NCBI GenBank assembly: GCA_001724265.1
Contig: MEDY01000314.1
Coordinates: 1-35,803, forward strand
Direction of reading: 5' to 3'
Length of the DNA stretch: 35,803 bases
Origin: Rhizaria sp. SCN 62-66
Lineage: Eukaryota
The position numbers and the translations under genes were made by a program. The notes under the pieces were generated by a model, which was not told the DNA's origin, made no database searches, and worked only from the letters and a program-made list of their open reading frames with translations. This document shows, one piece after another, positions 1,547 to 25,344 of the stretch (the stretch's first letter is position 1; each line of letters opens with the position of its first letter).

Positions 1547-3332
1547 ATGAGTGAATCTAGCACAAACACGCTTATTGTTGTTGGCGCCAACGCTGCGACG
1601 CGCTCCCATATCATCACAGGTTCGTCCCCTCCCAGACTCTTTTTGCTCGCTCCCATCGTTGTCTGCTCGTTGTTCTCGTCCTGCCAGCGCACCCACACTC
1701 ATTGCCACTTGATGCACCCCTTTGTTCGGTATTTTCTCGCTCTTTACAGCCGTTTCTGGCCTTGCATCAGACTCAGCCAGCGTCGCGCCGCTGTCCTGGA
1801 CGGTCGACAACAAGTACTATTTGGCCCCCGTAAAGGTCCACTCCCTGCCCGCCGCCGCCGCCGCCACTGTCTCGAGCTCCGGCGCCGGCAAGGCCGCGGT
1901 GCGCGGCAAGGGCGCCGTTGCCGCACTGCTGTCCCGTGCCAACGCCGCCGTTTTCCTCTACTGCCCCTCAGTCCCGCACAACGCTAACAGCAACAGCAAC
2001 AGCAGCAGCAAATCTTCAGACAAGCCTGATGCGGCTGATGCTGCGGCGCCGTTCTCGCTGGCGTCCGTGATGCCCGCGCTGCGCGCCGTGTCTTCCGCCG
2101 GCAACATCGACACGACCCTGCTGCTCGCGCTCGTCCCCGACAACAGCAACAGCAACAGCACGGCTCACCCTGACGCTGACGCCGACGCCGCTGCCGCTGC
2201 CGCCGCCGCCGCCGCCACTGTGCGTGCGCGCGTGGACGAGGCCGCGCTGGTCGCGGGGCTGCGCGCGGGCCGGCGCGCGGCGCTGCGGCACACGGCCGAG
2301 CTGGTGCAGGTGCCGCTGCCCGCCGCGCTGATGGCGACCCTGCTCTCGCTCGCCCACAACGCCAGCAGCAGCAACAGCAACGAGGACAGTGACGCTGCTG
2401 TGGAGGCTGATGTGGCCGCTGCCGTCACGGCCGCGCTTGCGGCCGCCAGTCTTGACTCGAGCGAAAACGCCGACGCTGACGCTGATGCTGATGCTGATGT
2501 TGATGACAACGACAATGGCAATGAAGAGGAGGATGACGATGACGGCGACGGTGACGAGAGCGAAGACGAGGACGCGGACTACGTCGACGACGAGGAGCTG
2601 CGCGGCCTCACGCGCGCCGCCGAGGTCCTTGCCTGCTGCATGTGGCCCGTCATGGAGCGCAAGCCGCAGCCGGACCGCAAGAGCGCGCACTCCGCCAAGT
2701 CCGCAGCCGCCAACGCAAGCGCCGCGAGCGCTACTGGTGCCACTGCGGAGAAAGACGTGAGTGTGGTGGGCGCGTTTGCGGGCGCCGGCGCGAGCGCGAG
2801 CGCGACCCGCGCGCAGCGGCTGGGCGCCGGCGACAGCGCCGAGAGCGACGGCGACGGCGACCACGAACATGGTGACGGTCACGAGGGACACGACGGTCGT
2901 CATCTCACTGACCTGGCTGATCTCGAGGGGCCCTATGTCGGCAACAAGAGCAACAGCAACGCCGGCGACGGCAAGGCCAGGTCCGCGGCCAAGTCCGGCT
3001 CTGCTGCGGGCTCTGCGACTGCAACTGCGATGAACGTGAACGGCGACGCGGCGGGTTTGGAGTCGTTCGAGCAGATCATGGCGACGGTGAGCAGCATGCG
3101 CGGCGCGGCGCAGGCCGGCGCGGCCGTGAGCGACGAGGAGCGTCGCCACAAGGCTGCCGAGGTTGCCACGGCGCTCATGCGCATGATGGGGCTCGACGGC
3201 GACGCCGACGACGACGACGACGCTGGCGATCACAACGGCGAGGGTGATGATGACGGCGATGATGAGATGATGATGAAGATGATGGGGCAGATGTTCGCGG
3301 GTATGGGCGGCGGGGGCAAGGATATGATGTGA
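1547..3332 (+). CDS. AAGAB: Alpha- and gamma-adaptin-binding protein p34 (AAGAB/Irc6 family); exons 1547-1619 and 1750-3332, ~551 aa
   Basis: Motifs WTVDNKYYLAPV, GLTRAAEVLACCMWPVM and C-terminal LESFEQIMATVSSMR...SDEERRHKAAEVATALMRMMG match my recollection of the p34 family. The splice is frame-preserving (G|CC). Ends in TGA. Confidence 0.8.
1620..1749 (+). other. Spliceosomal intron (130 nt)
   Basis: GTTCGT...ctctttaCAG, pyrimidine-rich, joins the exons in frame. Confidence 0.8.
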
Positions 3333-4096: not shown

Positions 4097-6079
4097 ATGC
4101 TGTCCCGGCTATCCCGCTCGGCTGTGTCCGCTCTGGGCTTCCGCGCCGCTACGGCCGTCGCCGCCGCTTGCGTCGCCACCGCCCCCGCCGCCCCCGTCAC
4201 CTCCGCCCTCCCTTCCCTCGCGGGCGTCAAGGCCAAGACCGTTTCCAGCGCCGGCGCCGTCCTTTCCACCAAGGACCTCCTCTCGTCGCTCTCCGTCCGC
4301 GCCGCCGCCCCCGCGCGCGCGATGTCGTTTGCGCAGACGCACATCAACGTCATCGACGGCGCTCTCCCCAAGGACGACGCCGCCCTGCTCGCCAACGCCG
4401 AGAAGATGGACGAGATCCTCGCCGACCTCCGCGCCCGCGTCTCGGCCGCGCGCCTGGGTGGTGACGAGAAGGCGCGCGCCAAGCACGTCGAGCGCAAGAA
4501 GATGCTGGTGCGCGACCGCATCGACGCGCTCGTCGACCCCGGGGCGCCGTTCCTCGAGCTCTCGCAGCTCGCCGGCACGGGCCTCTACGCGCCCGACGTG
4601 ATCAACGCCGGCGGCGTCATCACCGGCATCGGCCGCGTCAACGGCGTTGAGTGCATGATTGTCGCTAACGACGCGACCGTCAAGGGTGGCACCTACTACC
4701 CCGTGACTGTGAAGAAGCACCTCCGCGCCCAGGAGATCGCTCAGCAGTGCCGCCTGCCCTGCATCTACCTCGTCGACTCCGGAGGTGCGAACCTCCCCAA
4801 CCAGGTACGTGGACCAACTTGAAACAAATCAACACCAAGATAGGACTTGGTTGAACGCTTTATTCTCATCTCAAACATCTTCTTTTCTCACCACAATTTA
4901 TCTTGTTCTTGTTTTCTTTCCTTCTTTCAGGACGAGGTGTTCCCCGACCGCGACCACTTCGGCCGCATCTTCTACAACCAGGCGCAGATGTCTGCGCAGG
5001 GCATCCCGCAGATCGCCGTCGTCATGGGCTCCTGCACGGCCGGCGGCGCCTACGTGCCCGCCATGGCCGACGAGTCCATCATCGTCAAGAAGACCGGCAC
5101 CATTTTCCTCGGCGGCCCCCCGCTCGTCAAGGCCGCGACGGGTGAGATCGTCTCCGCGGAGGACCTCGGCGGCGCCGCACTGCACTGCAAGCAGTCCGGC
5201 GTGACGGACCACTTTGCCGAGAGCGACGAGCACGCGCTCGCCATCGCGCGCCGCGTCGTCGCCAACCTCAACTGGCGCCGCGATTTCGCCGTCACGCAGA
5301 CGCCCGTCGTGCCCCCGCTGCACGACACGGCCGAGCTGCGCCACCTGGCTCCCGTGGACTTGTCCAAGCCGCTCGACATGTACAAGGTCATTGCGCGTCT
5401 TGTCGACGGCTCCGTCTTCGACGAGTTCAAGGCCCTCTACGGCTCCTCGCTTATCTGCGGCTTCGCGCGTCTCCACGGCTTCCCCGTCGGCATTGTCGCC
5501 AACAACGGCATTCTTTTCTCCGAGTCGGCCAAGAAGGGCTCGCACTTCATCGAGCTGTGCGCGCAGCGCAACATCCCGCTCGTGTTCCTGCAGAACATTT
5601 CCGGCTTCATGGTCGGCAAGCAGTATGAGGAGGGCGGCATCGCCAAGGATGGCGCCAAGATGGTCACCGCCGTCGCCACGGCCAACGTGCCCAAGTTCAC
5701 CGTCCTCTGCGGCGGCTCCTTCGGCGCCGGCAACTACGGCATGTGCGGCCGCGCCTACTCGCCCAACTTCCTCTTCATGTGGCCCAACGCGCGCATCTCG
5801 GTCATGGGCGGCGAGCAGGCCGCGGGCGTGCTGGCCCAGGTCACGCGCGACAACATCGAGGCCAAGGGCAAGACGTGGCCCGCCGAGGAGGAGGAGGCCT
5901 TCAAGGCGCCCATCCGCGCCAAGTACGAGCGCGAGGGCTCGTGCTACTACTCGACGGGCCGCCTCTGGGACGATGGCGTCATCGACCCCGCCGACACGCG
6001 CGACGTGCTCGGCCTGGCGCTGTCTTCCGCGCTCGGCGCCGGCAACAAGGAGACCAAGTTCGGCCTCTTCCGCATGTAA
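4097..6079 (+). CDS. MCCC2: 3-methylcrotonyl-CoA carboxylase beta (carboxyltransferase) subunit, mitochondrial; exons 4097-4804 and 4931-6079, ~618 aa
   Basis: Conserved motifs [85 protein letters not shown] and C-terminal FGLFRM. The Arg/Ser/Ala-rich N-terminus looks like a presequence. Ends in TAA. Confidence 0.96.
4805..4930 (+). other. Spliceosomal intron (126 nt)
   Basis: GTACGT...long polypyrimidine tract...CAG. Splicing restores the conserved LPNQDEVFP motif. Confidence 0.96.
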
Positions 6080-6538: not shown

Positions 6539-9266
6539 TCACTGCGCCTTGGTCTGGCTGGTGATGGCCGCAGTGGCGGCGGCGGTGGCAGCGGCGGCCA
6601 GGTCGCTGGCGCGCTGCGCGCCGGCCAGCGGCAGCAGGGTGGTTTGCGCGAACGCCATAAGCTCAGCCCAGTCCACGAAGCCGTCCTGGTTGGTGTCGGC
6701 GGCGGCGCAGAGCTCGGCGATCTGCGCGGCCGAGAGGCACACCGCGGAGTCGGCCACGAGGGCCGCGAACTCGCTGCCGCTGAGCCGGTCGTCGTCGTCG
6801 GCGTCGAACTCGACGAACTTGAGCCGCATCAGGCGGCTTAGCTCGGACAGCTGGTCGCCGCTCAGCTCGACCACAGCGCCGCTGCCGCTGCCGCTGCCGC
6901 CCGCGCTGCCGTTGGAGAGCGTGAGAGTCGCAAGCGCGCCCAGCGCGCCCAGCCCCGCCCCCGCAGCGGAGTCGCCGGCGTCCGCGCTTGCGCCGCCGTC
7001 GCTCCCCGGGCCAGCAGCGCCGCTGCCGGTCTGGAGGAACGCGGCGAGCTGCGGCACGGCGGCGGCGATGCTGGCGCTCTGCGTGGCCGCCGCAGTCTCG
7101 TCCTCAAAGAGCCGGTACACCACCAGCGACACGATGCGTGAAAACGACACGATGTCCACGAACGGCACCGCGCTGCCGCCACTGCCGGCGCTAGCACCGC
7201 TGTTGTTCGCGTTGGCGGCGATGGCGGCCAGCAGCGCAGCGCCGGCGTCGTCGCCAGCGCCACTAGCAGCGCCGTTGCTGTCCCCGTTGCTGCCGCTGGT
7301 AGCAGAGCCCGCGCCGACGCCGGCGCCGTCGGCGAAGCCGCGGTCGAGGTACCCCGCGGCGGCCAGGAAGGCGTAGACCTGCAGGGCCGAGAGACGGACG
7401 CGGGCCGCGTCGTCGACGAGCGCGGCCGCCACGCGGTCCGCGCGCATCTTCTCGCCCGCGCCGCCAGCAGCCTCGCCGCTGCTGCTCTCGGAAGCAGCAC
7501 TACCGCCCGCGCTGCCGCTGCCGTGGCCGGAGACGTCTGCACGCTTGCGAGCGCGCATGACCTCGAGCAGGTAGCCACCGACGTCGTTGCGGGCGCGCTC
7601 CAGCTCGGCCTCGGCCAGCGCGGCGAGCAGGATGCTCTCGTAATGCAGCTGCAGGTGCTGATACAGCACGCCCGCAGAGCTGCTGCCGTCACTACTCCCG
7701 GCACCGCTGCTGCCGCTGCTGCTGCAGTCGCGGGGCAGCCTGGCGAGCACCGCGCGCGCCTCAGCGGGGCGCAGCGCGAGCCCCTCAACGCCGCCCAGCA
7801 GCAGCACCAGCTCGTCCGCGCTCACCACGCCCGTCTCGTTCGGGTCCAGCGCCACCAGCGGCAGGTCCATTGACGCGTGCAGCGCGGGCGCGGCGGCGCG
7901 GAGCCTGCGCGCGGCGGCGGAGTGCGCCTCGCGGGCCTCGAGCGCAACGGCGGCCACGGCGGCGGCCGTCGCGGCCAGCGCGGCGGCCACCTCGGCCACG
8001 GCGGCGACCGCGTCGGCCACGGGCACGGGCGTCGACAGCGCCGCCAGCGAGGGCAGCGCGGGCGCGGCCGCGGCGGCCGTGGCGGCGAGGACCGCGCCCT
8101 CGGTCGCGCGGCCAGTCACGCGACCCGGCACGCCCGCCAGCGAGAGCGCGCCCTCGTCCGCGCTCTCGCCGGCGGCGGCGACAGCAGCAGCGGCGCCGGC
8201 GCCGGAGCCGGAGTCGGAGCCGGAGCCCGCGGCGGCGAGCGCGTCGAGCGAGAGAAGCGCGTGCGCGGTCTGCAGCGCGTCGCGCGGCGCCAGCGCGGGA
8301 TAGCCGTGCGCAGGCAGTGTGCGCGCCGACACGCGCAGCACCGCCGACAGCGGGACCGTCGCGCCGCCGGCGCCGCCGGCGCTGACGTTCGAGCTGGCGC
8401 TGGAGCCGGCGCTGGCATGAGTGATGTAGGGGCGCAGCGCAGCGGTGAGCGCGGCCTCGAGCTGGGGCACCGTGGAGCGTGCCACGGGCGCTGCGGGCGC
8501 GGCTGAGGCAGAGGAGGATGAGGCGCGCGCGGCGGCTGCGGCGGCGGCAGCGGCGGCCTCGGCGGCGCCAGCGACGCCCAGACCCTGTTGCTCATCCCTG
8601 AAGAGTAGAAAGGGAAGAAAAAATGAAATGGTGAGAACAAATAATAGACCGAGTGCGTGGATCAATAGCACAAGACATGAAATATACGCGCTGAGAGTTG
8701 CGAGTGCACGGCATAACGCACCTGGGCGGGTCTGCGCGGGAGCGGGACGCGAAGCGTGTGGCGTGCTCGAGCTGGAAGCTGCTCATGTTGCGGCTGTTGA
8801 AGAGCGTCTTGGCCTTGAGGATGCGCAGCACGTGCTCGTCAATGTCGCGCGTAACGTCCGTGTGCACGCGGTCCTCGTGCTGCGCGCGCCACGACACGCG
8901 CGGCGCACCCAGAGACAGCGACACAGCGCCTGACTGCTGCTGCTGTTGCTGCCTGTTGCTGGGCAGATTGAGGACGAAGTTGGCTGGCAGCGGCGACGGC
9001 TCCCAGGGTTGCGGAGGCACGCGGGGATTGCTGGGCGGGCGAAAGAAGGCGACGGCAAAGTGCGTGAGCGCGCGCACGTCGGGTAGCGGCAGGTGCGGGG
9101 ACGGCACGCGGCACCAGTCAACATCGAAGAAGACGCAATACTGGGCCATCGAGTTGAACGTGATGGTGTACGAGTAACGGCTGTTCCATGAGTCAAGCAG
9201 GGAACGCAGGAAGTGCTCGCACTCGAGAATCACCTGGCCGCGTGGCGGGGAAGCCGGGGAGGGCAT
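6539..9266 (-). CDS. EF-hand protein with a putative N-terminal AKAP14/AKAP28-like domain; exons 9266-8722 and 8597-6539, ~867 aa
   Basis: C-terminal EF-hand pair (DADDDDRLSGSE; DTNQDGFVDWAE) and an internal EF-like loop (DPNETGVVSADE). Exon 1 contains FDVDWCRVPSPHLPLPDVRALTHFAV...VSWRAQHEDRVH, reminiscent of the AKAP28 domain (less certain). In-frame splice AG|G. Ends in TGA. Confidence 0.72.
8598..8721 (-). other. Spliceosomal intron (124 nt)
   Basis: GTGCGT...tttcttccctttctactcttCAG on the minus strand, frame-preserving. Confidence 0.85.
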
Positions 9267-9837
9267 CAGCGGAGCGGGCAGCGGCGGGACGCAGGAGCTA
9301 TGCTAGTTGGGTGCTGAGGGGGCGGGGAGGAGTTCTGGGGAGGGCACGAGAGAAAGTTTCAATGCTATTGTGAGTTCAACGAAAATAAATAGAATGAAAC
9401 ATGCGTTAATAATCCTAATTTGGTCCTTTCGCGCTGAATGACGGATCTTTGCTGTCAGTAGAACCATTTGCTATCACTCGCTCTTAGGAAACCGTTTCTG
9501 CCGCAGTGGCTAGTGGCCAGATAGAACAGTTTGTGGTGTGCTCGCATTGTCTACTTTCGGCACAGTGATATGCGACGAATATATCGTCAATGCTGGCCCA
9601 ATCATGTGATGCGTATTTAAACATGCGCTCTTGCTTGGTTGGTATATTCTTGTTTCTTAGAAGCGAATATACGCGCTGAGACAGGGTCACAAGTGCTGCA
9701 ACCCAAACGCATCATGCACTTTTTCGACCAGCACTACTTTCTTTGCCCAGCAGACAACACAACAGAGCATTATATCCTCGGCGCAAGAGACATCAGGGTT
9801 TTTTCACTATATTCTTCCGCTGTAACGTTGAGGCACG

Positions 9838-10735: not shown

Positions 10736-13570
10736 TCACCACATCGCACTGCCTTTCATTGCCACTCCCGCGCCCTGGAGCCGCATGGCCGCGAGCATCT
10801 GTGGCAGCGAGAGCTGCGTCACCGCGCGCTCTTTGTTCGTGTCCATCAGCCGGAACACCGCCTTGCTCTTACTCTTGCTCCTGCTTTTGTGCTGGCTCTG
10901 GCTGCGGCTCATGCCAGCGCCGCTGCCGCTGCCACCGCTGAAGACGTCGCCGTCGGCCTCGCAGTCGGGCGCGGGCAGCGGCGCGGTGCCCACGGCCGCA
11001 GAGACGTCGGACGACACGGCCGCGCCCCACAGCCCCAACAGCACGCCCTCTGCAGTCGCGCTCGCGCTCGCGGTCGCGGTCGAGCTGCTGCGACCGGCGC
11101 TGTGAGCAGCTGGTACGAGGGGGAGTCCGGACCAGAGCTGGCACAGCGTCTCAGCGGCCGCAGCCACCGCGTCTGCGGTGACGCCGGCAGTAGCAGCTGC
11201 GCCCACTGTAGCAGCGGGCTGCAGCATAGCCGTGGCCGCGGCCGCGACGGCCGCGCTGCGGGGCGGCGCCGCGGCCCACGCCACGAGCCCCCCCGCGGCC
11301 TCGGCGGCGGCGTCCAGCCCCGCCTCGGCCCAGACGCGCGCGCCCAGCCAGGCCGCGAAGGCCGTCAGCAGACACAGAGGCGCGCTCGCGAGAGCTGCGC
11401 TCGCGGCGGCCGGCGCGGCGGCGGCCGGCGCGGCGGCGGCGGGGGGGTGTGAAGCGCTTTGGGGCTGCTTCTGCAAGAACATCGCCAGCATGCCCCTCTG
11501 CTGCAGCTGTTGCTGCTGCTGAGGCTTCGCCGCCGCTGCTGCTGCCGCCGCCGTCGTCGCCGCCTCCGCAGCGGCAGCTGCTGCAGCGCCGGTGGCCGCG
11601 GCGGCGAGTGTAACTGCAAGCGCGGCGAGCCACGCGTTCCGTAGCTCCGTGACGGCGACGAGCTTGATGGGCAGCAGCGTGCGCAGCTCCCAGCTCCGCC
11701 CCGGCCGCTGCAGCAACTGCCACGGCCGCGCCGGCAGCGGCGGCGGCGACGGCGACGGCAACGAGGACAGCCCTGAGTCGTCAGTAGAGTCACTACCGCC
11801 ACTGCCACTGCCACTGCGATGACACTGCGACTACGACTGGGAGAGCTCTTGCTGCTGAAGCTTTGGCCTTGGCTTCGGCGACTGCGCCTGTGGCCGGGGC
11901 ACCCGAGCGGTGACCGAGAGCGGACGCGTCGCCCGGTCGCAGTCGGCGAAGGACGTGAAGGCCAGCCAGAACGGGCTCCGGCGCAGCGCCTGCGCGCACT
12001 GCGCCCGCGACGGGGAGCCCTCGTGCGAGCGCAGATGCGAGCGCTGCTGCTGGCGCTGCTGCTGGTGCAGGAGCAAGGCTGACACCGGCGCAGCAGTCGT
12101 CGCGTCGCCCGCGTGCATCTCGCCGTCAGCATCGGCGTCAGCGTCAGCGTTGGCGTAGGCGTCGTCACTCATGCCAGAAGCAGCCGAGCGCTTGCTGCTT
12201 GCAACCTTCGAGTTCTGAGTAAAATACGACAGAAACATGGCTGATTGACTCGTTTTGCCCTTGTTGTCACTGTTCGCGCCGCCAACAGCGCTAAACATCG
12301 CGCCGTCGCCGGCATTATTGCTCTCGCTCGTTGTTACCAACGCTGAAGACGTTGATGCCGCCGCCGCAGCGGTCGCCGCAGCGTCGTCGTCCGTCGCGAG
12401 GCGCGCAAACAGGTCGTCGTCGATGGAGCCGCAGTCGCTGTGTTCGCAGTCGCTGCCGCCGGCGCTGCCGTCGTCGCCGTCGCCGTGGCCGTCGTCGTCG
12501 TCGTCGCTGTGCTGCGGCGGCTCGCGGTCGCAGCCGTCGCCGTGGCGGCAGCGGCGGCGGCGGCGGCGGGCGTGCGCAGCAAAGGCAGCAACGGCGGCGC
12601 CGGCAGCAGCCGCAGCGGCTGTTGCGGCAGCCGTCGCTGTCGCTGGCTGTGATTGTAAGTGTGATTGTAAGTGTGAGTGCGACTGCGGGTGCAAATGTAA
12701 GGGTGCGTGTAAGGGCGTCCGCAGCGCGCGAGACAGCGCCGCGGGCTCGGGCGTATACACAAGAGAGCCCTTGGTCACGACCGCTGGGAGTTGATGCTGC
12801 TGGTATGAATCGTTCTCGCTCGCACTCGAAGTCGCAGTCGCAGAGAAGTTAGCACTCGCGCTAGCACTCGCGCTGAATCTAGTACTCAGTGACTGCTGCT
12901 GCAGTAAATGTTGCGGTTGGAAAGGAGAAGAGGGGATGGCGAACGGCGAGTGTGTCTGCGACTGTGAGCGCGATAGCGAGCGCGTGTGCGACAGAGACGT
13001 CGACAACAGAAGTGACTGCGGCTGCAGCCCCTCCTTAGCATCAGCATCGTCCTCGTCGTCCTCCCGCATACTCACTGGCCGAGACATGGCGCCACCAGCG
13101 GCCGCAACTGCACCCGCGGCGGCCGCAGTGCTCGCGTAGGAGGAGGAGGCGGAGGCGGAGGCCGTGGCGGAGTGCGCGAGCGCGGCCGCAAGCGCTGCCC
13201 ACGACTGCTGCGCGCACGCACGGGGCCAGACCAGCGCGTCCAGCGCCGACACCGCACGCGACAGCGCCGCGGGGGATGACAAATGCGCTGCAACGGCTGC
13301 AGCAGCGGCAGACGCAAGAGCGACGACCGGCGAGGCGGATACAGTGGGGGTTGCGAGGGCAGACGCTGCAGCGAAGGCGGCGGCGGCGAGGTCGCTCTGC
13401 CAGGCGGAGACGGCTGCTGGAAGCGACAGCGCGGCGGGGGCAGCGGGGCCAAAAGGAAGTGCCGGTGATAGCTCAGCGCTGGTACGCTTGGAGCGTGTTG
13501 CGGACTGTGGCGTGCGGCCGGAGGCGCGGAACTGAGAGGGCTCGGCGCCCGCAGCGGGGCCGAACTGCAT
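10736..13570 (-). CDS. Hypothetical protein, ~944 aa, single exon, with an in-frame TAG at 11833-11831
   Basis: ORFs 11831..13594 and 10736..11761 share a frame and are separated only by one TAG (ELSQS*SQCHRSGSGSGG). There is no AT-rich spacer or intron signal between them. ATG at 13570; TGA at 10738-10736. Confidence 0.75.
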
Positions 13571-14374: not shown

Positions 14375-16530
14375 ATGAGTTTCCTCGCCGAGTCGATCGA
14401 CTCCGCGTGTGCGGGTAAGCGCCCCGTGCGCATCATTGCGGAGACCCTGCTCATCGCCGGCGCCGTCAAGCTCGCTGCCTCGCTCTTCCGCCGCGTCCGC
14501 CGCCGCGGCCTCAAGGCCACTCTGACCGGGCTCGCGCTCTCCACGGCCGCGGCCGTCCCCGGCGGCGGCTCCGCCGTCTCGGCCTCGATCGCCTCCACGA
14601 TGCGCAAGTCGATGATCCCAGCGGCCGTGCTGGCCGAGGCCGTGAACCACGACCTCCCGGCCGAGGGCGTCCCCGCCGCCGAGCTCCTCGCTAAGCTAAA
14701 GACCTGGGCCGGCGACGAGAAGGCGCTTTGGGGCGCGGGGCGCGCGTCGGGCGCCATCTACCACGGCGGTGAGGAGCTGCTCCGCACGCTCACTGAGGCC
14801 TACACCATGTTTGCGCTCAGTAACCCGCTCCACCCCGACCTTTTCCCCTGGGTTCGCAAGATGGAGGCTGAGGTCGTCCGCATGACCTGGTACGTTCCGA
14901 CCACTTCGTCGATAATATAGCACTCTCTGGTCAGTTTATTGTTGCATTACCGTTATAACTGTGTATGCCTCGTCTGTTTGTCGCTCTTAATGGTGACACA
15001 ACTCTTTAGTACTCTTACTCTTGACCACAAACGTGACACCAACCTGACACACACTATCACTCATGTTTTCACTTCCCCCTTGCCACCGCTCCTGCGCCTC
15101 TGTCTGGCCGCCGCAGCTCTCTGTTCAACGGCGGGCCCGAGACGTGCGGCTCGATGACCTCGGGCGGCACCGAGTCGATTCTGATGGCGATGAAGGCTTA
15201 CCGCGACCGCGCGCTGGACGAGCGCGGCATCACCGCGCCCGAGCTCATCGTGTGCCGCACCGCGCACGCCGCCTTTGACAAGGCCGCCGCGTACTTCCGC
15301 ATTAAGCTCGTGCAGCTCGAGGCGGACCCGGTGACGCAGACGCTGCCGCCGGCTGCCGTGCGCGCGGCTCTGACGGCCAACACCATCGCCATCGCGGCCT
15401 CGGCGCCGACCTTCCCGCACGGCGCCGTGGACCCCGTGCCCGAGCTGGCCGCCATCGCCGCCGCCGCGGGCGTGGGGCTCCACGTTGACTGCTGCCTGGG
15501 CTCCTTCGTCGTGCCCTTCGCGCGCGCCGCCGGCGCCGACATCCCCGCCTTCGACTTCTCGGTGCCCGGCGTGACGTCCATCAGCGCCGACACGCACAAG
15601 TACGGCTTCGCGCCTAAGGGCTCGTCGGTGGTGATGTTTGCGTCGCCCGCGCTGCGCCGCCACATGTACTACGTCACCACGAGCTGGGTCGGCGGCATCT
15701 ACGCCTCGCCCACCATTACCGGCTCCCGCGCCGGCGCGCTCGTCGCGGCCACGTGGGCCGCGCTTATGTGCGTCGGCCGCAAGGGCTACCGTGAGGCCGC
15801 GGAAAAGATGCTGGGCGTGGCGGCGCAGCTGCGCGCGGGCATCCCGCGCATCCCGGGGCTCAAAGTCGTCGGCAAGAGCGCGCTGACCGTGGTGGCCTTC
15901 ACGGTCGACGAGAGCAGCCCCGACAGCAAGGACCGCGAGGGCGGCAACATCACCGTGTACAAGGTGTCGCAGGCCATGAACAAGCTCTTCCACTGGCACC
16001 TCAACTCGCTGCAGGCGCCCGCCGCCGCGCACCTCTGCGTCACCTGGGCCAACCACGAGACAGCGCGCGACGCGTTCCTCCGCGTACGTATTGCAACATT
16101 ATATTCAAATATGCACACTTATGGCACATCTATCGTCGATACAACGCTGTTCTTTGTATTGATCCAAGAATAACGAATAGCTTTAAGTTGAGACTTTAAC
16201 TTAAAGCGTTCTTCCTCCTTCTGTTATTCACCACCACTTATCTCACACGAAATCTCATCTTTTTTTCTCCTTCACTTTTATTTATGCTACCACGATTTAC
16301 AGGACCTTGCCGCCGCTGTGGAGGCCGTGCGCGAGCGCCCCGGCGACTTCGCGGGCGGCTCTGCCCAGATTTACGGCTACGCCGAGGCGCTGGGCGGCGA
16401 CGACGGGCCCGCGGACAAGGACGCCCAGGAGGGCTCCGGCAAGACGGGCGCCGGCGGCGACACCGGGCTCCTCGCAGACTTTGCGCGCGCGTACATTGAC
16501 GTCCTTACCTACGTTCCCGACAGGACCTAA
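14375..16530 (+). CDS. SGPL1: Sphingosine-1-phosphate lyase (PLP-dependent, group II decarboxylase fold); exons 14375-14889, 15117-16083 and 16303-16530, ~569 aa
   Basis: [78 protein letters not shown]-lysine motif [23 protein letters not shown] and AQIYG. Hydrophobic N-terminal segment. Ends in TAA. Confidence 0.95.
14890..15116 (+). other. Spliceosomal intron (227 nt)
   Basis: GTACGT...ccgCAG. Splicing restores MTC-SLFNG. Confidence 0.92.
16084..16302 (+). other. Spliceosomal intron (219 nt)
   Basis: GTACGT...tttaCAG, phase 0, gives AFLR|DLAAAV. Confidence 0.92.
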
Positions 16531-17148
16531 GTCAGTCATCAGCTCGGAAAGAAAAGCGAGGGCTAATGGAGAGGCGCTGCGCTGTGAGTCAATTCGTTTG
16601 ACACAATCGAGCGATATGCGCAGTGTACTTGGGGCTGGAGGTCTGAATGATCCTTATTATCTGTTTCCTTTTGTTACGCGTGTGTTTTGTTTTTGTTTTA
16701 AGCAATTATACACATCAATCAAGTCAATATTCTAATTTTTTTTAGCTCAATAATCTCGTTCGTGATCGTAAATCGCGCGGCTTCACTTTTTTTTTCGGTC
16801 CTTGGTCCGCTCCGTCCGCTCCGTTCGTCCGTTGATGCCCATCGAGCGAGACGTTTGGAAGTGAATATGGCACCCAAGGCCGTCTTTGTTTGAAGTGTAA
16901 TTTTACGAGAATACTGCAATTGCTGTATATATTCGTGCCATACGAACTGCTTTTTATTTGACGACTCACCACCTGCGAACATTACGATTCTTTGCGTCCC
17001 ACAGCGGCTAGTACCCACCCCCGAGTCTGATCTCAAAGCAACCTCTGCCAAGAGCCCTGTCTCAGCTCTCCGCAGCTCTTTGGCCGTTGTCGTCACTCGG
17101 TCCTTGCTCCACTACCCTGCGGCTAGCCCTTTTCCTGCCACAGCCCTG

Positions 17149-17385
17149 ATGTTCTCTTTCGGCGCCAAGCCCGCCGCGCCCGCGGCTGCGCCCGCTGCCG
17201 GTGGCTTCAAGTTTGCGGCCGCGCCCACCGCCGCCGCCACTGCGCCCGCTGCCGCGCCTGCCGCCGGTGGCTTCTCTTTTGCCGCTAAGCCGGCCGCGGC
17301 CCCCGCAGCCGGCGGCTTCTCGTTCGCTGCCAAGCCCGCCGCGCCCGGCGCGGCCGGTGGCTTTTCCTTCGGTGCCAAGCCCGCT
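17149..17385 (+). repeat. Five degenerate FG-nucleoporin-type repeats (GGFSFAAKPAA)
   Basis: Units MFSFGAKP, GGFKFAAAP, GGFSFAAKP (x2) and GGFSFGAKP separated by Ala/Pro spacers. Confidence 0.85.
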
Positions 17386-18520
17386 ACTGGCCTCGCCGGC
17401 GCCGCCGTGCCCGCCGCGCCGGCCGTGGCCACCGCGGGCGTGCCGCTGCCCTCCGGCGCCATTCCCAGCGCGACGCTGCACAACCCCGCGGCCAGTGACC
17501 CGCTGATCGACCGTATTAACGCCATCTCTCGCGCGCTCGACCTCGCCTCCTCGCACTGCCGCCTGCAGACGGTGCTCTACAACAAGACCAACCCGGCGTT
17601 CCTGTCGCAGGTCGTCAAGCCGCCGCACGCGGACGCCGCCGTGTGGGCGCGCGGCGTGGCCGCGAACCCGGACCCGACGACGCTGGCGCCCTGTCTCGTG
17701 GTGGGCTTCCCCGACCTCGAGCGCAGGCTCGGAGAGCACCACAAGGCCGTCCAGTACGTTCCGCACGAATTATAACGCGTTGAGGATCCATGTTATTTAC
17801 GTGGTATATATGTGTGTGTCTTTGTGTGGTATAACTATTTTAATCATAGAACAGGTCACCAACCTCAGCCTTCGTATAAGCCATCAGCCTCTGTCTTACT
17901 TTATTATTATTTTGTGACGAAACATGCATTGATGTGTTCTTTATCTCACGGTATCTTTTTACTTGATGTGCCTGCCCCTAACCTGTTATCTCTCTCTCTT
18001 GCTCAGGACTCACCTGGACGCGCTCGCGGCGACCGGCGAGCGCGTGGACGCGATGCGGCTGACGCAGCAGCGCCACGAGGCCGAGCTGGACCGCCTGCGC
18101 TCGACGGCGGCGGCGCTCTCGCAGCGCGTGCTGCGCGTCGCCAGCCAGGCCGACCTGCTGCGCGCGCGCGGCGTGCCGTTGGCGCCCACGGAGCTGGACC
18201 TGCTGGCCAAGCTCGAGCGCATTGACGCCGAAGTCTCGGGCCCCGGCTCGCGCCTGACCGCGCGCGTCGCCGACGCCAGCGCCCGCGTGGCCGCGACCCG
18301 CGACCGGACGGCCACCGACGCCGGCGGGGCCGCGGCGCAGGGCACGCTGGGTGGCGGCGAGCAGGCCGCGGCTGCCGCGGTGGTTGCCGGCGTAGCGGGC
18401 GCCGCGGGAGCCGCGCTGGAGACGCAGCGCCAGCTCGTCGAGGAGCTCGTGTGCGAGACGGCGCTGGTCAAGGCCGACGTGGCCGCCGCCGTGCGCGTGC
18501 TTGAGGCCGGCCGTCGCTGA
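17149..18520 (+). CDS. NUP54: Nucleoporin Nup54/Nup57-like; exons 17149-17753 and 18007-18520, ~372 aa
   Basis: N-terminal FxF(G/A) repeats, then CRLQTVLYN...KPPHADAAVWARGVAANPDPTTLAPCLVVGFPDLERR, then a coiled-coil region with LSQRVLRV...LRARGVPLAPTELDL. This is typical Nup54 architecture. Ends in TGA. Confidence 0.88.
17754..18006 (+). other. Spliceosomal intron (253 nt)
   Basis: GTACGT...tctctctcttgctCAG, phase 2 (CA|G), frame-preserving. Confidence 0.9.
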
Positions 18521-20745: not shown

Positions 20746-23700
20746 ATGCAGAGCTCTCTTGTGCGCCGCTTCGCCGCGCGTGCCGGCGCCCATACACCCG
20801 CGCCCGCGCTCCGGCCCTCGCAAGCGACGACAGCAACAGCTTCTAGTGGCGCTAACCACCCCTGCTCGCTGCCTCAGCGCGCAGCCTCGTCGTCCTCAGA
20901 GTTCTAGTCCCAGCAGCGGCAGCAAGGCAGGCCTCCGCGGTCGGTGAACCGGCAGGCGCAGGCAGTCGCCGAAGCCCGCCGCCATGACCGCGCCATCAGC
21001 AAGGGCCCCGGCCGCGGCCACGGCCACGGTCATGACAACAGCCACGGCCATGGCCACGGCCACAGCGTCCACGCGCGCGCGCACGCTCACAGCCCTTTTC
21101 CGGGCCCGGCCGCGCATGCGCACGCGCACGCGCACGCGTCCCGCGGCGGCAGCAGCGGCGGCGGCGGCGCGAGCAGTTCCGCTCTGAGCAGCTCTGCTCT
21201 GAGCAGCTCCGCCCTGGGCGGCTCCTCGCTGGGCAGCGCGCAGAAACGCGTTACCGCGTCTGCCGCCGCCGCCGCCGCCAAAGAGGCGGACCCGGAGGCC
21301 GCGGCCGAGGCCGCCGCCTAGGCCGCCGCCGTGCCGCGCTTCATGTACCCACTGCCACTACTGTCACCGCCAGCGGCCGCAATCGCTCTCCGCGCACGCG
21401 GTCCCCACGGCCGCCGCAGCACCGCCGGCGACGCCGAGGCCGAGGCTAACGTCGGCGAGAACCATGGCCAGAATGAGGGTGATGGTGGGGATGACGTGGT
21501 CGCCATGCTGGGCGCGGACGCCGGCGGTGATGTCGCGGCCTGGCGCCTCCGCGCCGCCGCCGCGCTCGTCGCAGCAGTCTCCCGCACCCGCGTTGCGCTC
21601 GCCCTCGCCCGCGCGTCGGTTCCTGGGGCCGCCGGCGCGGCTGACGCCTCTGGCAGCAACGGCACCGACGGCGGCAACGGCGCCGGGCCGCAGGTCAGCG
21701 CGGCGGACGTGGGTTCCGCGGCCGCGGCGGTGCCGTTCATCCGGGACCTGGCTATGCAGACGATGCTGTTGCTGCCCCCCGCGCTCGACGCCGCCCCTCG
21801 CGTGAACCCCAACGCTTACAGCGACAGCGACGCCGCGGGCGCGCACACCGACGCCGACGCCAACGCCAGCGCCAGCGACTGCTCGAGTGCCCTCCACAGC
21901 GACAGCGACGGCCGCGCGGCGTCGCCGGCCGCGGTGTCGGTGTCGCCGGCCGCGGCGGCGCGGTGGGCCGTGGCGCACGGCGCGGGCGGGCTGCGTGCGC
22001 CCTACGTTGCGCTGGGCTACGAGGACGCGCTGGCGCCCGCCTCGGCCGACGCCGCACTAGCCGTGGTGCGCGGCCCGCTCGAGGCGCTGCCGGAGGTGCT
22101 TGCGCTCGGCCAGCTACCCGTCGCGCGTAAGGGCGTCCTGGACGCCAGCGCCAGGGAGGACGGCCGGGGGAAGGGCAAGAACAAGGGCAAGGGCAAGGGT
22201 AAGAAGTCCGACGCTGACGCAGACGCCGACGCTGACGCTGACGTTCCTGAGGCTGCTGAGGCTGCGACTGCTGCCGAGACTTCCGTTGCGCCTGTTCCGC
22301 CGCCTGCTGTCACCACGCTGGGCGGGTGCGGCAGCGCCGTCGTCTCCGTCGCTGCGGCCGCCGCCGCCGCCGCCGAGGCCGTGGCCGCGCGCGCGGGCGT
22401 GCTGCTGTCGACCTCGGCCAGCCCTCTTGCCGCCGCTGCGCTCGCAACGCTGCCGCTGCTCGACCCCGTCGCCGCCACCGCCGCCGCCACCGCCTCCTCA
22501 ACCGCCGCCGCTGCCGCCGCCTCGACCGCTGCCGCCGCCGGTGCAGGCGAGACCGACTCTGAGCAATCGACCGCGGCTGCGGCCGCGGCTGCGGCTGCGG
22601 CCTCGGTGTCGGTGTCGGTGTCGGTGTCGCCGGCCATGGCTGCGCTGGCGCTGGCCGACCCCTACGGTCGGCTCGTGCTCTCGGTCACGCACACGGACGC
22701 CACGGAGGCGCCCCGCACCGTACCCCTGCCCGCCACGCCCGCCGCCGACGCCGCCGCCGCCGCCGCACACTCGGCGACGGCGACGCCGCCGCCGCCGGCG
22801 GTATCGGTGGCCGGGGCCGTGGCCGCGGCCGACGCGGTGCTGGGTCACGCGGCGGTGCGCGATGTGCCGCTGTCCTCCGCGCTCGCGGCGGCCTACTTCG
22901 TGCTCGCCAACCCGCCGGTAAGTACCCCCTTAGAGGACGACGGCCCCTCCAGCACCAGCACCACCACTACCACTAGCAGCGGCAGGAGCAGCAGCAGCGG
23001 CGGGTCTGTGAGCGTGATGGACACAGCCGCGCACTCAGAGGCCGACGTCGCGGCCACTCTCGTCGCCGTGCTCACCACTCCCCTCGCTCACAACACGGGC
23101 GACGGCGCTGGCGCGGGCGCGCGCGCGATGATGATGACGCCCGCTGAGGCCGCCGCGAGCGCGCGCGCGGCCCTGCGCGCGCTGTCTGCCGCGCGCGCGG
23201 CGGGCCGCATGGCCGCGGCGACGGCGGCGCTGGCGCGTGTCGTGCGCCGCGTCTACGCGCTGCCGGCGCGCAACGCGCTGGGCAACCTGGCCTCGCTGCA
23301 GACGGGCGCGGGCGAGGCCGCCGCGGCCGCCGCCACGACCGTGTTCGCCAGCTTTCACGCCGAGGCCGAGGCGCTGGCCGCCGCGGGCCGCCTCGTCGCC
23401 GCCGCCGCGCAACGCGAGCTGCAGTTCTACCCCAGCCAGAGCCACGGCGCAGATGCTGCCAGCACGGGCAGCAGCAGCGCCAGCGCCAGCAGCGCCGAGA
23501 CCGCCGCGCGCGCCGAGACGGAGCAGGCGCTGGCGACGCTGACGCTGCAACTGGGCGCCGTGCTGCCCGACTGGGCCTCGCAGGCGGCGCTGGCGCGCGC
23601 GACTGCGCCCGCGGGGCCCTGGGCCGGCCGCCACGCCTTCGCGGCCTTCGCGGACCGGCCCTGGACGGCGACCGAGTCCGCGGTCAAGTTCGCCACTGAG

Positions 23701-25344
23701 GCCGCCGCGGCCGCCGCCTCGAGCGCCGCCACGGCCGCCGCGACCGCAGCCGGCAATGCGCCCGGGCTCGGCCGAAGCGGCTTCTCCGCGGCCGCCTCGA
23801 TGGCCGGCAACGCGGCCGCCACCGCCGTGCGCGCCGCGGCCTCAGTGGCGCTGGCCTCGGCCGAGGCCGGCCGCAAGCGATCGCCGGGACAGCTCTCCGC
23901 CCACCCTGTGTTCCCCGCCCCTAACAGCAACAGCAACAAAAACGACACCAAAGCCAAGAACAAGACCGATAACAAGAACACTGGCGCCGCCAGCGCCAGC
24001 GCCGGCACAGGCGCCGAGGCCGACGCCGAGGCCATCGCCGTCGCCACGGCCGCCGCCGCCGCGGCCGCCGCCCCCATGATCGCGGGCCTCGGTGCGCCGG
24101 TGTGGCACTCGCTGCTGTCGCCGTTCCCCGCGTGCTACTCGCTCGAGACGCGCGCGATCCTCGCCGCGGGCCCGCCCTCGCCCGCGCTCTACGCCGCCGC
24201 CGCGCGCGCGCTCGTGTCGCGCCGCACGGCCGCCGCGCGCGCCGCCGCGCTGTCGGCGCCGCGGCCGCTCGCCACGGCCGGGCTTGAGTCCGTCGCGGCC
24301 GAGGCCGACGCCGTGGGCGTGCGCGAGCTCGTCGACTACGCGGCGCCGCTTCTTGGCGCGGCGCATACCAGGGAGGCCATCGTTGCCGCCGTCGTCGCAG
24401 ACAGGCAGCAGCAGCAGCAGCAGCAGCAGCGCCAAGACGATGTGACCGACGGAGCTGACACTGTTCCGGCCTCTTCTCCGGCAACTACTGCTGAGGTGGA
24501 CGTCGAGTCCGGCGTCTCGATGAACGACAATATCATGCTCTGCGCGGGCTACGCTGCGTACGCTGCGGAGCACCGCGCGCTGAGCGACGCCGGAAATAAC
24601 GGCTCCGACGCGAACGAGGCCACGAGCTACGACGGCGCGGTCTACTCCAACGTGGTCCCCCTCAGCACCGCCCACAGCCTCATCAACAGCCACGGGCTCG
24701 GTCTCGGTCAGACGGGCCGCCGCCGCCGCCTCGGTGCCGACGCCCCCTCGCTGGCGGCGGCGGCGGCGGCGGCGGCGACCTTCGCCGAGGCCGCGCCGGT
24801 GCTGACATTCAATGAGTGGCTGCAGCGCGCGCTGCCTCCGCGCGCGCGCCCGCTGCCGCCCGCGCGCCGCGTCGCCGCTGGGCTGCTGTCATGGCCCGTC
24901 GCCGACGGGCTCGCGGGTGCGCTTGTGGCCATGGCCGCGGCGCCCGCCCTCTCGGCGGCCCCCAGCGGGGGCGCGCGCGCGCTGGGCTTTGGCGCGACCG
25001 TGCTGGGCGAGGGCGCCGAGGACGAGAGCACGGCCTCGGCCCTCTTCTTCCCTTTCACCGACCTGCACGCGCGGCGCCTCGGCGCGCGGGCTGAGCCCGT
25101 GACGGCGGTGCCCGCGCTCAGGGCGCTTGTGTCGACGCGCGCACTCTCCTGGGCAGACTGGGTCGCCGAGCACGCGGCGCAGGTACGACACTTCGCCGGG
25201 ATACATCACACTCGGAAATGAAACCATCGTGACTGTTATTTGATATCGTTGTTATTCGTGCTTGTTAATGATTCCTTTTCTATTTTGAACAATGTCTCAC
25301 GACTCTCCACACCTTGCTTTCTTTCTTTCTCACTTGGTTTCGAT

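Follow-up and report, generated by a model that had tools for sequence, protein, structure and literature searches.

The window analysed here, 35,803 nucleotides (nt) long, is contig C314 (MEDY01000314.1) of a 34.9 Mb eukaryotic assembly with GT-AG introns. Its minus strand carries a long open reading frame (ORF) of low complexity that is interrupted once by an in-frame TAG (Table 1). The minus-strand codons at the site are CAA GAG CTC TCC CAG TCG TAG TCG CAG TGT CAT, and the translation across it reads ...QQQELSQS*SQCHRSGSGSGGSDST... Upstream of the TAG the frame runs open for 593 codons, and downstream for 364 codons as far as the TGA at 10738-10736. Between 10736 and 13612 it holds only this TAG and the terminal TGA, while each of the five other frames holds 11-23 stops. 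Over 300 nt to each side of the TAG the GC content is 0.72 and 0.73, compared with 0.46 and 0.49 beyond the ORF; the nearest Met downstream of the TAG lies 114 codons on. A Pfam search of the 944-residue product found no family. A genome search with the protein gave only two other matches, both short and repeat-like, so that the window TAG has no orthologue or paralogue column. No downstream RNA structure was found at the TAG (131 nt fold, z -1.04). As such a stimulatory fold is missing and the pattern described below is genome-wide, programmed readthrough specific to this gene is unlikely.

Table 1. Features of the window, with the tRNA-CUA gene found elsewhere in the assembly
Feature	Position	Strand	Remarks
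In-frame TAG	11831..11833	-	580th codon from the ATG at 13570; most likely Glu, judging from other genes
CAG TCG TAG TCG CAG	11825..11839	-	short Gln-Ser dipeptide repeat around the TAG
944-codon ORF (TAG read through)	10736..13570	-	low-complexity, Ala/Ser/Gln-rich; presumed start ATG 13570, end TGA 10736
Terminal TGA of the 944-codon ORF	10736..10738	-	GC content falls from 0.73 to 0.49 behind the TGA
Second in-frame TAG	20905..20907	+	close to the N-terminal end of the 20746-25221 ORF; crossed by X2/X3 and X4 contigs with 0 differences
Third in-frame TAG	21319..21321	+	in the 20746-25221 ORF; 1299 open codons behind it; no crossing contig among the matches listed
ORF of ~1490 codons	20746..25221	+	low-complexity; two in-frame TAGs, TGA end; start presumed; no family in Pfam search
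Adaptin-binding p34-like	1713-3332		
Carboxyl transferase (MCC beta-like)	4844-6079		
EF-hand protein	6539-8782		
Pyridoxal-dependent decarboxylase family	15037-16173		
Nup54-like	16894-17775		
tRNA-CUA gene	G000:C84:76009-76081	-	full cloverleaf by ARAGORN; poly-T run behind

The TAG at 11833-11831 is real and does not stem from misassembly. A 414-nt contig present in both X2 and X3 (11737-12150) crosses it with no other letters and no gaps, though the tables of these two are near-identical and they may be one data set. Similarly, in the polyA RNA run X5 a contig of 332 nt (11593-11918) runs across the site with neither other letters nor gaps; runs X6-X8, with small shares, were left out of the contig comparison. 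Among the matches listed, no strain has a different letter at any TAG site. The X5 contig is no proof of transcription, because DNA can occur in a polyA library; the depth of X5 in three largely non-coding bins was 0.27-0.6, and that of X4 there was 3-10. A preliminary description had reported the TAG as lying in mid-gene and being read through within one gene. Both statements hold: the re-read sequence continues for 364 codons to the TGA, the contigs span the TAG unchanged, and no AT-rich spacer separates two halves. The same description saw the TAG in the slot of CAG in a (CAG TCG)n hexamer repeat. The flanking units suggest that it probably arose from CAG, but the repeat is only about 2.5 units long. 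Moreover, a repeat slot tells which codon mutated and not what the new codon means, and the site cannot be called the strongest for codon meaning, as had been proposed, since no Pfam family matches its protein.

The meaning of the codon was sought in the rest of the genome, of which about 1.0 Mb of the 34.9 Mb was read, overlaps included; part of this was random and part was chosen around tRNAs and conserved genes. A codon model was trained on the long ORFs of the genome, and the sequence after each stop triplet ending a coding-like stretch was scored. Coding sequence continues after 26 of the 31 TAGs, after one TAA of 59 and after none of the 51 TGAs (Fisher p 2.7e-22). The five TAGs that do not continue comprise two behind a splice-donor-like motif, one in a helicase exon entering an intron and two unexplained ones (L104 and L067). 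TAG occupies 33 of the 121,207 sampled coding codons, which is about 0.03% of codons and about 0.6% of Glu codons (GAG/GAA 5,282; CAG/CAA 4,579). The coding DNA is about 65-75% GC, and the commonest stop is UAA. In-frame TAGs stand in otherwise intact conserved genes, namely those for Thg1, eRF1, UBE2J, five kinases, a quinone reductase and an AROM-like gene. Family searches overstate TAG, because six of the 11 matches flagged for TAG among 142 kinase matches were intron sequence or 3' splice sites; the single flags in the DEAD and myosin families were also of this kind (1/1 each), and none of 20 ABC rows was flagged. All flags due to introns or splice acceptors were dropped before counting. 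TAG is a rare sense codon genome-wide, and TAA and TGA still terminate.

The columns in which TAG aligns with conserved residues point to Glu. The Thg1 TAG (L164, plus strand, 1447-1449, G000:C25) aligns with E in all four solved sequences, at the position of human E77, and the Pfam score with each residue at the TAG is 87.8 bits for E, 84.6 for D and 83.9 for Q. E77 is among three conserved carboxylates (PMC3701042; PMC6471195), and according to one of these articles it binds no metal and positions a catalytic arginine (PMC3701042). With the TAG at this residue, the maturation of tRNA-His would hinge on the one tRNA-CUA. In the eRF1 gene the TAG (L004, minus strand, 1594-1596, G000:C63) falls at E107, where 120 homologues have E in 109, D in 10, V in one and Q in none. 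When metagenomes were scanned for eRF1, one contig was 100% identical and had the TAG (L142, perhaps from the same material); the nine other loci were distant, and no closely related eRF1 with a different codon at 107 was found. The quinone reductase TAG aligns with E in its one solved match. For the Nudix-like domain, a word-indexed homologue search found nothing; an exhaustive search gave 10 homologues, of which eight were aligned and two short repeat matches (P0123 and P0129) were left out. The two TAG columns have E in three of eight (Q in none) and E in four of eight (Q in one), and the two closest homologues have E at both. Summed over the nine TAG sites inside Pfam matches, the score is highest with E (669.4 bits), followed by Q (662.6), K (661.2), S (655.6), Y (647.0), L (643.7) and W (641.4), so that E leads Q by 6.8, Ser by 13.8 and Leu by 25.7 bits. 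No conserved Gln column with a TAG was found; the informative columns are Glu, and Gln occurs only in a ubiquitin-like paralogue and in repeats.

Several of the genes with TAGs have features of their own. L102, L103 and L104 (G000:C148, C49 and C9) are related atypical kinases, two of which have an in-frame TAG in the kinase domain; L102 has two more TAGs downstream, and at the hinge site Asp stands in the paralogues. The AROM-like fusion gene (L130, minus strand, 909-1508) has its TAG in a Cys-rich linker between two domains, of which the downstream one matches EPSP synthase and the upstream one was named by eye. The Nudix-like gene exceeds 1,500 codons (L127, plus strand, 8376-9800, and on into L153, G000:C44, from about 22,400). 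It has 10 in-frame TAGs within its first 474 codons and none within the 1067 that follow. The two parts do not differ in CAG frequency or third-position composition; GAG is lower in the TAG-rich part. The in-frame TAG of the eRF1 gene itself might provide negative feedback on its own synthesis; the chance of a TAG in a gene of that length is about 11%.

A candidate reader of UAG is present. The genome has a tRNA gene with a CUA anticodon (Table 1), the only one among 12 matches of a tRNA pattern search, which included seven tRNA-Glu(CUC), one tRNA-Glu(UUC) and no tRNA-UUA. Such patterns overlook tRNAs with introns or long arms, and the assembly may not be complete. The acceptor of the tRNA-CUA is identical to that of tRNA-Glu(CUC) at 11 of 14 positions and to that of tRNA-Glu(UUC) at 10 of 14, as against 2 of 14 for each of two tRNA-Gln. 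Its first five acceptor pairs are common to both tRNA-Glu isoacceptors, and its discriminator G is that of tRNA-Glu(UUC). The label "Pyl" given by ARAGORN, its name for a CUA anticodon, was rejected since the body matches tRNA-Glu. In pattern searches whose spacing fits the tRNA-Gln genes of this genome, no CUA tRNA on a Gln body was found.

The release factor is also altered. The stop-reading domain of eRF1 carries the changes T32S, G57S, T58K, L124M and K130Q; T32S, G57S and L124M each occur in none of 120 homologues, and T58K is shared by the closest relative. The closest homologue, P0004 (84% identical), retains T32 and G57. T32 is described as contacting the G of UAG, and Iotanema spirale carries T32G (PMC5304391). 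The changes, T32S among them, plausibly weaken the recognition of UAG.

Taken together, UAG alone has most likely been reassigned from stop to Glu in the nuclear code of this protist, UAA and UGA remaining terminators and a single tRNA-Glu(CUA) reading UAG. Glutamyl-tRNA synthetase would charge this tRNA with a Glu body, whose CUA anticodon would decode UAG but not UAA, and the changes in the stop domain of eRF1 may weaken the competing recognition of UAG. At the window site, CAG would have mutated to TAG and the Gln-to-Glu change would have been tolerated in low-complexity sequence, so that one 944-residue protein would be made. On the other hand, it is conceivable, though rather unlikely, that the system is a late intermediate of stop capture, in which tRNA-Glu(CUA) competes with an eRF1 weakly seeing UAG and the competition is used for control. 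If eRF1 still competes at UAG, the UAG of eRF1, Thg1 E77 and the TAG-rich Nudix-like gene could be control points.

Some observations weigh against the reassignment to Glu. No more than about 1.0 Mb of the 34.9 Mb was read, overlaps included. Few Pfam sites are informative: Thg1 alone supplies 3.9 of the 6.8 bits by which E leads Q, three of the nine sites tie (the ubiquitin-like one and two kinases), K is ahead by 0.3 bit at two kinase sites, and 11 further TAG sites showed an E/Q difference of at most 0.2 bit or no domain match. Solved homologues have D or S at the UBE2J column and Y or K at the CaMK column. In the ubiquitin-like paralogue, TAG stands where the genome's own ubiquitin has Gln. 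The eRF1 protein has non-consensus residues at 36 other columns, and V stands at 107 in its closest homologue, so that this column alone is not decisive. The closest genomic relative of the tRNA-CUA, tRNA-Glu(CUC), is only 47/73 identical to it. Gln flanks the codon on both sides in three of the 33 TAGs (9%), compared with 0.3% of GAG, and a naive Bayes classifier on flanking residues put L first, Q at -1.2 and E at -5.6 bits.

Close to the window TAG (within 60 codons), codon usage gives the ORF frame no better score than the best other frame. This would favour TAG being an ordinary stop, with the ORF a nonsense allele, a pseudogene or two genes, or with an intron removing the TAG, as would the lack of a known domain in the window protein and the intron or splice-site nature of six of the 11 flagged kinase matches. 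We consider this hardly credible. Over 300 codons the score favours the ORF frame (44 vs -28 upstream, 77 vs 59 downstream), there is neither an AT-rich spacer nor an intron at the site, and the contig from the RNA library crosses it ungapped. Moreover, the sole canonical eRF1 found and Thg1 would also be broken, the genome has a tRNA-CUA, and TAA and TGA lack such a read-through pattern. The preliminary description had instead taken the TAG as a synonymous Gln change, which would make the code one of the Iotanema type. This reading draws on the CAG slot in the window, the Gln position in the ubiquitin-like paralogue, the three TAGs inside poly-Gln and the preference of the flank classifier for Q over E by 4.4 bits. 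The classifier argument is weak, because TAG inside poly-Gln runs (three) is rarer than the missense neighbours CGG (nine) and GAG (seven) and far rarer than the synonymous CAA (95), and because the mean number of acidic residues among eight flanking ones is 1.06 for TAG, close to 1.09 for GAG and not to 0.62 for CAG. With Glu in the Thg1, eRF1, quinone reductase and Nudix-like columns, Q behind in the Pfam sum and a tRNA-CUA built like tRNA-Glu, the Gln meaning is not supported and is very improbable.

It is also improbable, if less so, that UAG is ambiguous, read mainly as Glu with a real share of Gln from a mischarged CUA tRNA, of termination by an eRF1 still recognising UAG, or of both, as an intermediate state. 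In Escherichia coli, amber suppressors derived from tRNA-Glu can incorporate some Gln. The avoidance of TAG everywhere, the single tRNA gene, the occurrence of TAG in both acidic and Gln-rich contexts and the five non-continuing TAGs, two of which (L104 and L067) no intron can account for, would fit such a state. However, the TAGs of Thg1 (at E77) and of eRF1 call for efficient insertion of Glu, the poly-Gln TAGs are at the level of missense noise, and the 10 TAGs at the start of the Nudix-like gene are hard to reconcile with frequent termination. Two other codes were rejected: UAG as Leu, as in the rhizarian exLh, by the Pfam sum and by the variable loop of the tRNA-CUA, which is 4 nt where a long-arm tRNA-Leu(CUA) would be needed; and UAA as a further sense codon, either as Glu together with UAG or as in Oligohymenophorea sp. 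PL0344, by the single continuing TAA and the lack of a UUA tRNA among the pattern matches.

The GC-rich protist is probably a rhizarian. In a tree of Brr2 (55 sequences, 865 columns), which represents one protein and a set with no named stramenopile or alveolate, it groups on a long branch with Bigelowiella and Amorphochlora (FastTree support 1.0 for the clade). Its ubiquitin genes begin Met-Ser-Met, which fits the insertion of one or two residues described at rhizarian polyubiquitin junctions (PMC3014934; PMC13746701); no monomer junction of polyubiquitin was recovered, and several ubiquitin copies break at contig ends. The ubiquitins (L039, L041-L043, L156 and L157) are unusually divergent: one form has a three-residue tail, others are L40 fusions, and one ubiquitin-like item among them is a fusion with TAG at the Gln of ubiquitin. 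Judged by eye, the 18S sequence of the bin is highly divergent, and the ribosomal DNA contig may be mis-binned. The 18S match (L037, 1501-5945, G000:C706) is AT-rich and spans 4,445 bases for a model of 1,831 positions; its insertions, about 2.6 kb altogether, resemble group I introns by eye, and the first is long enough for an ORF. The 18S of helkesids is reported to be very divergent (PMC6133090), and a placement in Sainouroidea is a lead only. Two metagenome proteins, P0004 (eRF1) and P0133 (Brr2 region, 87% identical), represent a related lineage, in whose eRF1 T32 is kept and position 107 is V. The protist itself turns up repeatedly in runs from bioreactors, wastewater and activated sludge.

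Across the window, all nine long ORFs end in TAA or TGA, and no tRNA gene was found. The Pfam-matched exons of the five ordinary neighbour genes contain no in-frame TAG; one of these genes, that of the pyridoxal-dependent decarboxylase family, we take to be S1P-lyase-like. At window positions 16209 and 16558, X4 has deletions of 10 and 11 bases relative to the window, the second also in X5; the X4 deletions reflect a slightly different strain in study P3.

Codes in which UAG means Glu are known together with a changed UAA. In the articles cited here, Oligohymenophorea sp. PL0344 is described as using UAA for Lys and UAG for Glu (PMC10553269), Blastocrithidia as using UAA and UAG for Glu and UGA for Trp (PMC12153298), and peritrich ciliates as using UAA and UAG for Glu (PMC11687900). 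The CUA tRNAs of PL0344 are, like ours, most similar to tRNA-Glu; PL0344 differs in being a ciliate with UAA as Lys, UGA as the retained stop and 10 CUA tRNA genes, compared with the one found here. In Blastocrithidia and the peritrichs, too, a tRNA-Glu(CUA) derived from canonical tRNA-Glu reads UAG, but UAA is also Glu, read by a tRNA-Glu(UUA), whereas in the protist UAA and UGA are stops and no UUA tRNA was found. Blastocrithidia has been explained by AU pressure, a route not obviously applicable to a genome with GC-rich coding DNA. UAA and UAG almost always share their meaning, and UAG as Glu beside UAA as a stop would, if true, be a new combination; no report of it was found in a literature search with subscription journals mostly outside its coverage and supplements excluded. 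For this genome, standard annotation would truncate about one gene in ten (an 11% chance for a gene of 437 codons). A natural eukaryotic Glu-tRNA(CUA) together with a T32S eRF1 would be suited to probing how the third base of stop codons is discriminated.

The closest parallels in mechanism are the nuclear codes in which only UAG has changed. In the same sources, UAG is Leu in the rhizarian exLh and in three ciliate metagenome-assembled genomes, Gln in Iotanema, Hartmannula, Trochilia and Protocruzia, and Ser in Scotinosphaera, the phyllopharyngean ciliates having UAG-only codes with Leu or Gln (PMC11687900); the assignments of Leu in exLh and Gln in I. spirale are also given elsewhere (PMC5304391). 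These codes and that of the protist share UAG as sense, UAA as stop and the need for a CUA tRNA, and I. spirale and the protist are both altered at T32 of eRF1 (T32G there, T32S here). If the reassignment is true, it would be the second UAG-only change in Rhizaria, with Glu where exLh has Leu, and with the tRNA gene and eRF1 both in hand. Thus, UAG as Glu with UAA and UGA as stops would work like the known UAG-only codes; it would differ from them in its residue, in its GC-rich genome, in the great rarity of UAG and in having its cognate tRNA gene in hand.

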